A DNA stretch of 18,833 nt from a virus. Lineage: Duplodnaviria; Heunggongvirae; Uroviricota; Caudoviricetes. The stretch lies in the IMG/VR virus record IMGVR_UViG_2582580966_000005; one strand, given 5' to 3'. The translations under genes and the position numbers were made by a program. Below the pieces are notes generated by a model. The model ran no database searches. It was given only the letters and a program-made list of their open reading frames with translations, and was not told the DNA's origin. Positions 2,752 through 17,918 of the stretch are shown here, piece by piece (position 1 is the first letter of the stretch; each line of letters opens with the position of its first letter).

Positions 2752-3529
2752 ATTTCGTCAGATCAATAGTGCCGCCAGTTGGTGTGCCTTTTGCGGTTTC
2801 CAGTTCTGCCGACAGGCTGGCAACCTGCGTTTTCAGGGTGTCGTGCGCATCCGCACGGGTTTTGCTCCCGGTAAGGGCAGACAGCGCCGCCGTGCCCAGT
2901 TCCGGTGTAAATTCGTCACCGTCAGCCACGGTCAGACCGAGCGCCGTCAGCAACTGGCGTAATTGCTCATTCATGGGGGATTGCTCCTGAGAAGGGGAAA
3001 CGACATAGAGATCATCAGCACTGAGTGCCGCGACAGGGTTCATACCCGTAATACCCGGATCATTCGTCAGGGAAGCCATGCGCAACAGGTAGGGCTCCCC
3101 GGTGTCAGCGAAATAATGCATATATGCAGACAGATAGGCATATTCACGGTCATCAATATGTTTTTGTGCCTGTGGTGTCCATTCAGGTTTAATGAAAATC
3201 CCCTGACCCTCACGCCATTCGATGTTTTCCGGCTTAACCCATCCTGCAGCAATAGCCTTGAATCCGTTTTTCTGCGCATTCACGGAGTGATGGTCATAAT
3301 CAATCAGTAACGGCTGATGCAGGGCGGAAAGCCCGGCTTTCATCCGGTTACAGGCGGATTCGTTAATCAGCCAGCCTTCAGTCGGTTTTTCCGGGCGACC
3401 GTCACGGGCCTTTACCCGACCGGCTGGCAGTAACTGACACCATCCGTCGCCGGATGCAGTCAGCGAAGCTGAAAGCACGGCTAAACCGGAGGGGCGATTT
3501 GCGTCTTTTGGGTGATTTTCTGTCTTCAT
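2615..3529 (-). CDS. Protease/scaffold protein (Mu I / gp32-like), 304 aa
   Basis: ATG start; Ala/Leu/Thr-rich coiled-coil-like C-terminal half, consistent with a scaffold domain. My hand translation of 2641..2950 confirms this frame with host-like codon usage. Confidence 0.75.
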   Translation of the reverse strand: MKTENHPKDANRPSGLAVLSASLTASGDGWCQLLPAGRVKARDGRPEKPTEGWLINESACNRMKAGLSALHQPLLIDYDHHSVNAQKNGFKAIAAGWVKPENIEWREGQGIFIKPEWTPQAQKHIDDREYAYLSAYMHYFADTGEPYLLRMASLTNDPGITGMNPVAALSADDLYVVSPSQEQSPMNEQLRQLLTALGLTVADGDEFTPELGTAALSALTGSKTRADAHDTLKTQVASLSAELETAKGTPTGGTIDLTKYVPVETYNALRTEYAALSAQHGSTTLEQLLDKAESEGRIFKSERG

Positions 3530-3706
3530 ACCGGCAGCATAAGCCGGGTATTTTTGGGGCTGGTTTTGCGGGACTTCAGAAAGTGCTGACAGGGGGGGAA
3601 TGAGAAAGGCGCTTCACGCAGATTTTAAAGCCCGTTAAATACAGGTTAGAAAATCACGACACGCGCCTGAAGGGGGTAAGGTAATACGTTTACATACCTT
3701 AAACCA
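3530..3706 (-). promoter_or_regulatory. Candidate late promoter/operator region upstream of the I gene
   Basis: Longest non-coding gap in the head module (177 bp). Contains a 7-bp inverted repeat (plus 3677..3683 taaggta and 3695..3701 tacctta) and C-tracts (CCCCC, CCCCCCC) on the minus strand. Mu has a C-dependent promoter upstream of I. Confidence 0.3.
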
Positions 3707-4180: not shown

Positions 4181-4301
4181 ATTGCCTCCGCATAAAGGAT
4201 GAATATAAAATAAACAGGCGGTCAGTGTACGCTTAACTGGTAAAGTCGGTGCCTGCCTCCGGGTGGATCATGTATGCGGGTTCGACCCCCGCCACTGACC
4301 G

Positions 4302-10897: not shown

Positions 10898-11249
10898 TCG
10901 TGGCCGCCTTGCTGATTTGTGAAATGAGTTGCAGGGTGCGTTGCTGGTTTGCCAGCACCAGACGGGCTTCGTCCCGTTCACGCACAAGCACATGATTATT
11001 GTCCTCAAGGCGCTGCGTCTTCTGGTGCATTCCCCATACCACGGCAGCCAGCACGCTCATCCCCCCCAGCGCCGCCATACAGCCTCCGGCAATCAGGGCC
11101 GGTAAGGGATTGTTCACCGCAGCCACAGCACACCCCGCAGCAGCACAACGGCACACAGCAGCGCAATCATGAGCGGTCGCCAGAAGCGGTTCAGACTTTC
11201 GGCAAATCGTAACGACATAACCATTCATCCGCCGAACGGCGGGCCTCAA
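10728..11249 (-). CDS. Putative i-spanin (inner-membrane spanin, Rz-like); start uncertain
   Basis: Track start at 11249 is a TTG; an in-frame ATG lies at 11226..11228. Predicted TM segment LPALIAGGCMAALGGMSVLAAVVWGM, then a coiled-coil-like QKTQRLEDNNHVLVRERDEARLVLANQQRTLQLISQ. Overlaps the endolysin 3-prime end and contains the o-spanin in another frame. Confidence 0.5.
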   Translation of the reverse strand: MRPAVRRMNGYVVTICRKSEPLLATAHDCAAVCRCAAAGCAVAAVNNPLPALIAGGCMAALGGMSVLAAVVWGMHQKTQRLEDNNHVLVRERDEARLVLANQQRTLQLISQISKAATNEKQQNIQHSEEQQSVVRRSLATVPAASVPVPDDVAERVRRAVCEIRACAAGSDPR

Positions 11250-11691
11250 GACCGGGGAGTTTTACCCCCTTTGAATAAATCCAGCGGATATACTGCTTAC
11301 AGGACGCGGGCATCTGCCCGGCATTGATAAGGCGCAGGAGCGTGGAGTTGCGAAAGTTCGTTTCACCGGCCCAGAAAATCCAGGAGGCCAGCGCCACCGT
11401 CTGACCACGGGTAAGCGGCACCTGAACATGACGATCGATAGCCGCAAAGGCCCATTTCATGTCCTTTTCCAGCAGCTCCAGACACTCTTCATCAGTTTTT
11501 GTCATCCCCGGTTTCACATCCGGGCCGGTATGGCCGTAACAGATGGTGGGGGTGCCGGTGGGATCAATGTACGTGGTGTTTTCTTTCCCTTCCCAGTAGC
11601 CGGTGTAGTGCGTGGCAATAGTGAACGTCCCGGCTCCGGCCAGAACAAGGGCAATCAGCTTTTTACGCAGTGGCGCGGGGAGTTTTGGCAT
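11191..11691 (-). CDS. lys: SAR endolysin (glycoside hydrolase family 24 phage lysozyme with N-terminal signal-anchor-release domain), 166 aa
   Basis: ATG start. N-terminal weakly hydrophobic Gly/Ala-rich segment LIALVLAGAGTFTIATHY, followed by the catalytic spacing E-x8-D-x5-T in WEGKENTTYIDPTGTPT. Confidence 0.8.
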   Translation of the reverse strand: MPKLPAPLRKKLIALVLAGAGTFTIATHYTGYWEGKENTTYIDPTGTPTICYGHTGPDVKPGMTKTDEECLELLEKDMKWAFAAIDRHVQVPLTRGQTVALASWIFWAGETNFRNSTLLRLINAGQMPASCKQYIRWIYSKGVKLPGLEARRSADEWLCRYDLPKV

Positions 11692-11762
11692 TGTTACGCT
11701 GTCTCATGGTGTTCTCTGAGCCAGCGTAACCGTGGAAAAAAGGGGGCAGGATTTGCGGAATA
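11692..11762 (-). promoter_or_regulatory. Candidate activator-dependent late promoter region upstream of the endolysin gene
   Basis: 71-bp non-coding gap between the activator gene and the first lysis gene; in Mu the lys promoter sits in the equivalent place. No clear sigma-70 -35/-10 was identified. Confidence 0.3.
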
Positions 11763-12185
11763 TCAGAAAAGCCGGGGCTGCGTGCGCTCCTGATGCAGGC
11801 GACGCTGGTTGCGGATAACGGAGTAAATCTGCGTCTCTGACATCTGGTAATGGCGGCGCAGGGGTTCAATTTTTTCACCCTGGCTCCAGCGGGAAAAAAT
11901 CTCATTATTGCGCAGTTCGGTGAAAAGGGATTCACCGACCGGGAGATAATAACCACGCCCGCCCATGTACCCGGCCTGTGCGGCCGCAACCTTACGGGCA
12001 AGCATTCCCGCCTGAGCAGATTCAATCCCCTGACGGTGCAGTTCAGCACTGATCACATCAACCAGGTCACGCAGCGTGCCGGGCCAGTTCTTTTTCAGCT
12101 CATCATCAGGAATATCATCCAGACGGTCAATCAGCGCGTGCAGCTGTTCGCTGTCACCAAACATGCTCATCTGTGTTTCAGCCAT
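11763..12185 (-). CDS. mor: Mor/C-family transcriptional activator (140 aa)
   Basis: ATG start with GGAGG Shine-Dalgarno. Motifs typical of the Mor/C family as I recall them: N-terminal MFGDSEQLHALIDRL, GRGYYLP, and a C-terminal HTH-like QMSETQIYSVIRNQRRL. It is the only Mor/C-type gene in the window, so it could equally be the C-type late activator. Confidence 0.75.
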   Translation of the reverse strand: MAETQMSMFGDSEQLHALIDRLDDIPDDELKKNWPGTLRDLVDVISAELHRQGIESAQAGMLARKVAAAQAGYMGGRGYYLPVGESLFTELRNNEIFSRWSQGEKIEPLRRHYQMSETQIYSVIRNQRRLHQERTQPRLF

Positions 12186-12216
12186 CCCCGCCTCCGGTCA
12201 CCATTACACAGGGCAA

Positions 12217-12252
12217 GTTTAAAATAAAAATCCCGCGCTGTGGCGGGATTTG
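12217..12252 (-). terminator. Rho-independent terminator for minus-strand transcripts, between gemA and the Mor/C-like gene
   Basis: Read on the minus strand: AAATCCCGC-cacagc-GCGGGATTT (9-bp stem, 6-nt loop) followed by TTATTTTAAA. Plus-strand arms are 12228..12236 and 12243..12251. Confidence 0.6.
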
Positions 12253-12255
12253 GGG

Positions 12256-12765
12256 TTAAAAAGGGGAGGATTCTTCATACAGCCTGCAAACGCGCTCATA
12301 ACTCATCACTGTACGCACTGACATCCCCAGCACATCCAGCATCTTGCGACGGTGCCAGCGTTTGAGACACTCCAGCACATCCGAGGCCAGTGCGGGGTGT
12401 TGCTCCAGCCACTGCCAGTTAGCCACACCTTCGCCACCGTTCTGCGCGGCCGTCTGCGACTTCACCCAGCGGTTAAGGGCCGTTTCCCCGCCATCAGCGA
12501 TAAAGCCCTGCCGGTGCATTACCTTCCAGATGGCGCGAATTTTGGCGGTCACCGTACCCGGTTTTAAGGCCCGGTTAACCGGTTTCTGACGCACTTTAAA
12601 ACCGCGTTTTTTGAAAACATCCAGCACGCGGGATAACTCATCCGGTGACATATCCCGGCAACTGGATTTGCCGGTGGCTGCCAGCAGAACGAATGTATAG
12701 GTTTCATCATCCAGGGCAAGCTCGCGCTTTGCCACATGAATGGCGGATATCAGTTTCCCTCTCAT
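12256..12765 (-). CDS. gemA: GemA-like regulatory protein (Mu gp16 / DUF1018 family), 169 aa
   Basis: ATG start. N-terminal LISAIHVAKRELALDDETYTFVLLAATGKSSCRDMSPDELSRVLDVFKKRGF matches my recollection of the GemA family; sits immediately upstream of the Mor/C-like gene as in Mu. Confidence 0.75.
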   Translation of the reverse strand: MRGKLISAIHVAKRELALDDETYTFVLLAATGKSSCRDMSPDELSRVLDVFKKRGFKVRQKPVNRALKPGTVTAKIRAIWKVMHRQGFIADGGETALNRWVKSQTAAQNGGEGVANWQWLEQHPALASDVLECLKRWHRRKMLDVLGMSVRTVMSYERVCRLYEESSPF

Positions 12766-17429: not shown

Positions 17430-17696
17430 TCACACCTCCCAGTAAACCGTGCAGCCGCTGATGCGGGTGGCCTTCACACGGCGGCGCAGGCCGTTGGTCT
17501 GTATGGTGATTTCAATTTCACCGGTTCCCTGCACGTTGCCTACCGGCGGCGTGGTTTTCAGTGCAAAACGTTGCGGATAGCGCTTACTGCGTTCCAGTAC
17601 CGCACCGGCAAGTTCGGTCAGACGGCGCGCGCTGTTCAGGGAGTCGAATAAATTCATTTTGTTACCGCAGGATTGCATATTCATATAACACCTCAT
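17430..17696 (-). CDS. Hypothetical small early protein (84-88 aa; start uncertain)
   Basis: ATG at 17696 abuts the upstream stop with no Shine-Dalgarno; the in-frame ATG at 17684 is preceded by GAGGTG. Tight packing with neighbours on the same strand. Confidence 0.4.
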   Translation of the reverse strand: MRCYMNMQSCGNKMNLFDSLNSARRLTELAGAVLERSKRYPQRFALKTTPPVGNVQGTGEIEITIQTNGLRRRVKATRISGCTVYWEV

Positions 17697-17918
17697 TTAG
17701 CTGACTTGTTTCGCACCAACAGAACGGCATATTCCGCTGTAAACGTCTGTCGCACCTTTGCGATCAAGTCCGGCAGATATCACCATTCGTGTGCGGTCAT
17801 TAAATTCAAAAAGTAAATCGCCACATTCTTTATTTTCGGCCAGTGAAATCACCTTCACGTTATCGAAATTAACCAGGTAAAAGCGTCCGTAAATATCAGG
17901 AATATTAAATACCGCCAT
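17697..17918 (-). CDS. Small early protein in the position of Mu kil (about 73 aa); function not established
   Basis: Track ORF starts at a GTG at 17924; the ATG two codons in (17916..17918) has an AGGTG Shine-Dalgarno 5 nt upstream and overlaps the B stop codon. Assignment is by position and size only. Confidence 0.4.
   Translation of the reverse strand: MAVFNIPDIYGRFYLVNFDNVKVISLAENKECGDLLFEFNDRTRMVISAGLDRKGATDVYSGICRSVGAKQVS

Follow-up and report, generated by a model that had tools for sequence, protein, structure and literature searches.

The window analysed here, an 18,833-nucleotide stretch of DNA, is a Mu-like E. coli prophage. Its identity to a prophage of strain FORC_069 is 97-99.6%, and that to the Sp18 type carried by O157 and other STEC about 85-90%. 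The complete FORC_069 prophage (L004) is about 39 kb long and sits within a fimbrial usher gene. All genes of the window are carried on the minus strand, and the junction between its early and late genes is composed of the following features:

12256..12765, minus strand: gemA (gp16 family; Pfam GemA E 3.6e-29; PHROG 286), annotated as gp16 family in the near-identical prophage
12258..12256, minus strand: TAA stop codon of gemA, the last gene upstream of the hairpin
12228..12251, minus strand: perfect hairpin (dyad) AAATCCCGC-CACAGC-GCGGGATTT, with the left arm at 12243..12251, the loop at 12237..12242 and the right arm at 12228..12236
12221..12230, minus strand: T tract TTTTTATTTT, whose first three T are also paired in the stem
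12191..12195, minus strand: Shine-Dalgarno sequence GGAGG of the activator gene, kept in relatives
11763..12185, minus strand: activator gene of the Mor/C family, C-like, 140 aa (Pfam Mor E 1.1e-30; PHROG 532 E 6e-44)
11191..11691, minus strand: endolysin (lysozyme) gene, first of the late lysis operon (Pfam Phage_lysozyme E 1e-36)

The gap between gemA and the activator gene measures 70 bp (12186..12255), and that between the activator and lysozyme genes 71 bp (11692..11762). The original prediction had placed a 9-bp GC-cored hairpin and a U-rich tract in the former and the endolysin gene directly after the activator; both placements hold, with the hairpin on the minus strand, and both gap sizes were right. 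Sp18, which has the same layout and belongs to the group of relatives with 83% activator identity, is predicted to be intact, and its DNA is packaged efficiently into particles (PMC2669165). The layout of gemA, hairpin and activator is therefore compatible with phage DNA amplification and packaging.

Some observations concern the remainder of the prophage. Relative to the 97-98% identical FORC_069 prophage, 479 bp (L001 2547-3025) that run from the end of the protease gene into the start of the major head gene are absent at about 2616-2617 of the window, and 385 bp next to this gap (window 2977-3361) are unalignable with that prophage. The head genes of the window prophage may be defective or replaced. 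The public annotation of the near-identical prophage lists a 'tRNA-OTHER' at window 4221..4300 (plus strand), antisense to the phage genes and between the F-like and G-like ones; ARAGORN found no tRNA anywhere in the window.

The hairpin starts 4 nt past the gemA stop codon on the minus (coding) strand. It consists of nine Watson-Crick pairs, five of them G-C, and a 6-nt loop, and is followed by the tail TTATTTTAAA (starting TTATTTT); counted from the GC core of the hairpin, the U-rich tail is TTTTTATTTT. A local fold of 41 nt has an energy of -13.5 kcal/mol (z = -4.0), and none of 200 shuffles was equally stable, while a 90-nt fold around the hairpin gives z = -1.0, being diluted by the flanks. 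A strict scan of both strands of the 18.8-kb window, which demanded a minimum of 8 perfect pairs and of 5 G-C, plus a T-rich tail, returned the hairpin as the sole match on either strand, and any match at all was obtained in only 1 of 200 dinucleotide shuffles. In the near-identical prophage L004, the hairpin ranks first among the terminator-like sites on the coding strand of the initial 20 kb. Its d'Aubenton-Carafa-type terminator score is about +24, an approximate value calculated with modern energy parameters, and equals that of the Mu hairpin after mor. A search of Rfam with the element gave sub-threshold noise only and no known RNA family. The element unites a GC-rich stem-loop with a U tract, the stability and score of an intrinsic terminator, and a site at an operon boundary after a stop codon. 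By its form it is an ordinary intrinsic terminator; from that form we infer termination itself. A literature search for transcript maps of Sp18 or of this prophage type returned no 5'- or 3'-end data.

A tool scan gave its top rank for terminator-like hairpins to another site, 17532..17553 on the plus (non-coding) strand inside an early ORF. It reads CACGTTGCC-TACC-GGCGGCGTG, followed by GTTTTC, and probably reflects chance or an antisense feature.

The early, middle and late cascade of phage Mu is the textbook case of such a junction. The Mu gene order is gemA, mor, a gap, E18, E19, gp20, C, a gap and lys, in agreement with the original prediction, which had mor as the last early gene and a separate C after it. 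Under the same scan, the top-ranked terminator-like site on the coding strand of Mu, within its first 18 kb, is AAAGCCGG-TTAAT-CCGGCTTT, followed by TTTT, at NC_000929 9176-9196. It starts 5 nt past the mor stop codon and folds with -12.2 kcal/mol (z = -4.0). Judging by its sequence form, this hairpin is probably also the early-transcript terminator t9.2, reportedly described by Marrs and Howe (1990) and Stoddard and Howe (1990). Numbered from the hairpin, the Pm start site falls about 734 bp upstream of C, in accord with a mapped start at about 740 bp. The Mor-binding dyad of Mu Pm extends from -51 to -36, centred at -43.5, and Pm has a -10 and no -35 (PMC4287176). The gap after mor has one dyad, the hairpin, and this coincides with the published Mor-binding dyad.

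Since the Mu hairpin after mor matches it in place, form and score, the hairpin of the window is the positional and formal equivalent of the Mu early/middle boundary element. In both phages the element directly follows the last early gene and precedes the operon that encodes a C-type activator, and in both it runs from AAA through a GC-rich arm, a 5-6-nt loop and the complementary arm to TTT and more T. The Mu hairpin has eight pairs and that of the window nine, with five G-C pairs each, energies of -12.2 and -13.5 kcal/mol and the same z (-4.0). As in Pm, a proposed downstream promoter has a -10 without a -35 and a T-rich stretch after the dyad (TAAACT, GCCACA and TTTTTATTTT). The differences are equally clear. 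The arm sequences are not the same (GCCGG in Mu, TCCCGC in the window), and the dyad, centred at -43.5 in Pm, lies at about -30.5 here when numbered with the conserved -10. Whereas the Mu dyad is bound by Mor, encoded just upstream, there is no Mor in the window; the C-like gene follows the element directly, where Mu has three small genes in between. The C gene of Mu, like the C-like gene of the window, lies directly upstream of the endolysin gene. For the original prediction this means that the anatomy stands, but that the hairpin is no peculiarity of this prophage, the same kind being present in Mu after mor.

With Mu Mor, Mu C and the window protein as queries, tblastn returned a single homolog both in the window and in the complete 39-kb prophage, and the public annotation of the prophage likewise lists one Mor-family protein. 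The single Mor/C activator predicted for the window is thus confirmed, and the second homolog nearby that was named as the refuting case was not found in the 39-kb prophage. A candidate second Mor/C gene at 17703..17816 was rejected, its Mor match being weak (E 0.047) and without a Mor domain. The activator shares 39.7% identity with Mu C (E 3e-37) and 27.6% with Mu Mor (E 2e-15), and by these values is to be classed as C-like rather than Mor-like, which refines the earlier assignment to the Mor/C family as a whole. The parts missing relative to Mu are therefore mor and the three small middle genes. PHROG 532 carries the label 'late transcriptional activator', and the Mor domain (PF08765) covers residues 33-139 with the dimerisation and helix-turn-helix regions, in a family whose members measure about 130-140 aa. 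The GG, the beta-strand Y/P and the recognition-helix S, Q and Y are common to the activator and Mu C, these residues being those named in 10.1101/2025.05.02.651988. Two beta-clamp-binding motifs, QHDLF and QPDLF, have been reported in Mu C (PMC12867686). Residues 5-9 (QMSMF) and 136-140 at the C-terminus (QPRLF) of the activator align with them, and like Mu C the activator may couple late transcription to replication.

The activator is expected to act on late promoters, two of which are predicted in the window:

11723..11769, minus strand: late promoter of the lysis operon (Plys-like), with TTTCTGA overlapping the activator TGA stop codon, box CCGCAAATCCTGCCCC (11743..11758) and -10 TACGCT (11723..11728)
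3536..3582, minus strand: second late promoter (PI-like), preceding the head protease gene, with TTTCTGA, box CCGCAAAACCAGCCCC (3556..3571) and -10 TATGCT (3536..3541)

Both have a common 47-nt architecture of TTTCTGA, N2-T-N, CCGCAAAWCCWGCCCC, N13 and TAYGCT. The box core starts 23-24 nt before the hexamer, as it does in Mu Plys, PP and Pmom and in the lys promoters of relatives, and the late promoters of Mu (Plys, PI, PP, Pmom) resemble the pair in the window in having an (A/T)AATCC-type box 23-24 nt before TAnnnT and no -35. This spacing is constant over nine late promoters, whereas the distance from the core to the hexamer at the hairpin is 27 nt in the window and 25-29 nt in relatives. 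The left arm of the hairpin thus has the same box core as the C-dependent late promoters of Mu, but its spacing is not that of 11723..11769 and 3536..3582, and a full late-type box at the hairpin was rejected since the upstream TTTCTGA half does not stand at the right distance. The TATGCT of the protease promoter ends 6 nt before the first ATG of the ORF (3527..3529), so that either the head protease mRNA is nearly leaderless or the true start codon lies further downstream.

Relatives were gathered at about 99, 94, 83, 66-68, 56, 52, 51 and 46% activator identity. A hairpin copy follows the gemA stop codon in seven relative groups compared upstream of the activator, as well as in all six loci in which gemA and the activator are separated by a cassette or insertion sequence. 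Down to 51% activator identity the relatives keep the stem core ATCCCGC/GCGGGAT, and in the 66% group (Citrobacter, Salmonella) the hairpin is identical although the flanks have diverged. The loops (CACAGC, CACAAC, CACAGA, GTCA, ATCC and CCGGTCAGA) vary between 4 and 9 nt in length across groups, and the arms are still complementary. The stem pairs were read by hand, MAFFT having aligned the shorter loop of L038 without a gap. Besides this loop, L038 shows two compensatory double changes from A-T to C-G (AA/TT to CC/GG), and an A to G change in the first copy of L036 is still paired as G-U. Apart from one mismatch each in L017, L020 and L052, the stem is otherwise invariant among relatives; compensatory change is confined to one lineage. 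The varying loop length together with the kept pairing fits an RNA hairpin better than a fixed protein site, and the near-identical arms across lineages of 51-100% activator identity exceed the needs of a terminator. A terminator ahead of a single activator is also found in the distant Vibrio phage martha and in loci L059 and L060 (two Pasteurellaceae-like contigs).

Further elements were noticed around this junction in some relatives. A second canonical terminator (CCGGC-GTAT-GCCGG, then TTTTT) lies between the activator gene and the lys promoter in Mu and in the 66-68% group (L005 6420-6470; same place in L035 and L036). The window and the 83% group have no second terminator there, and their late-promoter upstream element overlaps the activator stop codon (window 11763..11769). 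In the 51% group (L105 2415-2445; L104 2005-2045), the gemA stop codon falls within another box-like sequence, CATAATCCCCG, and the hairpin arm CAAATCCCGCC follows about 15 nt downstream, so that two AATCCC motifs stand in tandem.

In four relatives, a cassette of 650-800 bp with a reverse-strand gene splits gemA from the activator (L019 5286-5960, L021 2566-3315, L035 5366-5960, L036 5290-5960). Each cassette has one reverse-strand ORF without assigned function (113, 140, 85 and 111 aa, respectively), and those of L019, L021 and L036 contain an AT-rich stretch with GATC sites. The first copy of the 24-bp hairpin stands after gemA, and a second copy, or just its part from GCCACA to the hexamer, remains at the activator gene. 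The copy next to the activator gene is degenerate in L035, and in L036 it has lost its left arm and retained the right arm and GCCACA-N17-TATAGT, which would set the terminator part apart from the promoter part. L104 and L128 carry a different insert, with TACAAT ahead of the activator. In L015 (4493-5960), the hairpin loop is interrupted by an IS4-family element with a target duplication of 11 bp, GCCACAGCGCG; the transposase of this element is 445 aa long with Pfam Nterm_IS4 and DDE_Tnp_1 domains. No Mor/C homolog was found in the inserts of relatives. As three kinds of cassette, distinguished by their ORFs, are flanked by two hairpin copies, it is suggested that the hairpin is a hotspot of insertion or exchange.

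The gap also holds a candidate promoter of the activator gene, which overlaps the hairpin:

12239..12244, minus strand: GCCACA at the -35 position, with a 17-nt spacer and 3/6 match to TTGACA
12216..12221, minus strand: TAAACT, proposed -10, with 4/6 match to TATAAT and a start site at about 12209 (12208-12210)

With a match of only 3/6, GCCACA leaves the promoter effectively without a -35. A -10-like hexamer stands directly past the T tract in six of six lineages, at a distance of 25-29 nt from the T of TCCCGC and with 27-38 nt left to the start codon. It is TAAACT in the window and the 83% group and GATTAT in L038 (both 4/6 matches to TATAAT), TATATT in L005, TATAGT in L039 and TATACT in L105 (5/6 each), and TATAAT in L106 (6/6). 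Between the window and the 66% group the hexamer positions T1, A2, A4 and T6 are invariant, and the block that the window shares with the 83% group stops immediately after TAAACT. The chance of a match of at least 5/6 in four of six lineages is about 3e-6 on the measured background and 2e-4 with the background tripled for AT richness, values that are only indicative because the lineages are related and AT-rich terminator tails also raise the chance of -10-like hexamers. A promoter scan of the gap did not call TAAACT and reported no consensus promoter. Two other -10 candidates were rejected. TGTAAT (12203..12208, minus strand), which lies 32-37 nt past the dyad centre and would put that centre near -43.5 as in Mu Pm, is missing in the 83% (Sp18-type) and 66% groups; this geometry is confined to the window's own group. 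TATTTT (12226..12221), which would have late-promoter spacing, is replaced by TCCTTT in the 66% group.

It seems on balance probable, though by no wide measure, that early transcripts stop at the hairpin and that the activator gene is driven by its own overlapping promoter, which lacks a -35. The 70-bp gap would then be a compact two-in-one control element. In RNA from the early promoter, the hairpin and U tract would act as a Rho-independent terminator that ends the early operon after gemA, with 3' ends of terminated transcripts expected at the T tract 12221..12230, and would shield the late activator gene from most early transcription. As DNA, the hairpin would constitute the upstream half of the activator promoter, from about -42 to -19, with TAAACT (12221..12216) as the -10. 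Because transcripts from this promoter would start past the hairpin, at about 12209, they would not be terminated by it. Once made, the activator would switch on the late promoters, one at its own stop codon for the lysis operon and one before the head protease gene. An element at the site of the Mu early terminator and Pm dyad would in this way act straight on a C-like gene, without the intermediate steps of Mor and a middle operon. The promoter is a prediction, and above all its switch-on is something we infer; turning on by read-through priming and autoactivation is possible. The promoter of a late activator must stay silent in the lysogen, and no regulator of this one was identified. Of the two mechanisms offered by the original prediction, transcription from a promoter in the gap is favoured by the conserved -10-like hexamer and by the relatives with cassettes and two hairpin copies, and attenuated read-through into the activator may act together with it.

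The proposed readings overlap and are not strictly exclusive. In a rather unlikely but still plausible alternative, the gap would hold a terminator and no promoter; the activator would be made solely by read-through from the early operon, and attenuation would supply the delay that the Mor-Pm-C cascade provides in Mu. This is consistent with the strength of the terminator in the strict scan, score and z, with the shortness of the gap, in which no consensus promoter was called, and with some other Mu-like phages. One Mor/C homolog downstream of gemA is present in records of Vibrio martha, Pasteurella Pmp9, Shewanella MuM16-1, Pseudoalteromonas HS6 and BcepMu. The activator gene overlaps gemA itself in MuM16-1 and the second of two genes after gemA in HS6, with no terminator before the activator in either phage; given that no gap separates it from the upstream early-operon gene, the activator would there be made from the early transcript. 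This layout would be a Mor-like arrangement, unlike the insulated one of the window, which martha shares in having a strong terminator and then TATACT between gemA and the activator. The conserved -10-like hexamer speaks against a gap devoid of a promoter. Moreover, in the cassette relatives an early transcript would reach the activator only after passing both hairpin copies and some 700 nt that are antisense to another gene, and the activator-side copy of L036, although without its left arm, has kept GCCACA-N17-TATAGT.

Autoregulation through a Pm-like promoter is quite unlikely. Here the left arm would be a Mor/C-type element through which the sole activator, after priming by read-through, feeds back on its own gene as a commitment switch. 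Under the pattern CAAATCCYGCC, CAAATCCCGCC (12252..12242) equals CAAATCCTGCC (11755..11745) of the late-promoter box, exactly so in both gaps, and a search of a 43-kb locus with the 16-mer box at up to 3 mismatches returned four places, two of them the late promoters and one the hairpin arm with its flank CCCCAAATCCCGCCAC. Likewise, AATCCCGC also occurs in Mu Plys and TAATCCGGC within the Mu Pm dyad, and L106 has CTGACATA...TCCCGCC in common between its activator-upstream region and its own Plys. The equivalent Mu hairpin is a Mor binding site (PMC4287176), and a missing -35 is the hallmark of Mor/C-dependent promoters (PMC2582627). Nevertheless, the box stands 25-29 nt from the -10, as against the constant 23-24 nt of the nine late promoters, TTTCTGA is absent at the distance that the upstream half would occupy, and upstream of the arm the window is wholly unlike L019 and L021, which also differ from each other. 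The geometry thus gives no support to the activator binding its own promoter, although such binding is possible. A spacing of 4-9 nt between the arms would, in addition, be intolerable for a rigid dimer or tetramer site, and the geometry of Mu Pm (centre at -43.5) finds a -10 in the window's own group only.

It is very improbable that the palindrome is kept mainly as DNA, either as an operator for a repressor that holds the activator promoter silent in lysogens, with the dyad centred at about -30.5, or as a recombination or insertion hotspot ('linker') at the boundary of the early and late modules. The arms are near-identical in lineages with unalignable flanks, the three kinds of cassette in four relatives lie between two hairpin copies, one relative has an IS4-family insertion in the loop, and a perfect dyad over the -35 and spacer occupies a typical repressor position. 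On the other side, no candidate binding protein was identified for the dyad, a fixed protein site is hard to reconcile with loops of varying length, and in L036, as in L035 with its degenerate copy, no dyad remains beside the activator gene. A hotspot would also be compatible with a role as terminator and promoter and may follow from it. Several of these readings could hold jointly, the hairpin being at once terminator, core of the activator promoter and degenerate Mor/C box. The result would be a self-amplifying, one-protein commitment switch primed by read-through, with the Mor-Pm-C arrangement of Mu as its duplicated and split descendant and the 24-bp palindrome as a landing pad for cassettes in Mu-like genomes. 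Taken as a whole, this combination is unlikely.

The Mu counterpart of the hairpin is well studied and single-activator Mu-like phages are common. To our knowledge, the timing of late genes in single-activator Mu-like prophages such as Sp18 of E. coli O157 Sakai has not been studied. A literature search found no description of a boundary element that directly drives a C-like gene, nor of its dual use; both this arrangement and the seeming double role appear to be undescribed. The element suggests how timing could be achieved, a terminator insulating the activator gene and an overlapping promoter without a -35 driving it, and the hairpin also appears as a landing site for accessory genes and insertion sequences. 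With a length of about 40 bp, it is suited to reporter and in vitro work. If confirmed, the element would be an easily tested minimal timing switch of phages, from which the Mu middle promoter could plausibly have descended.
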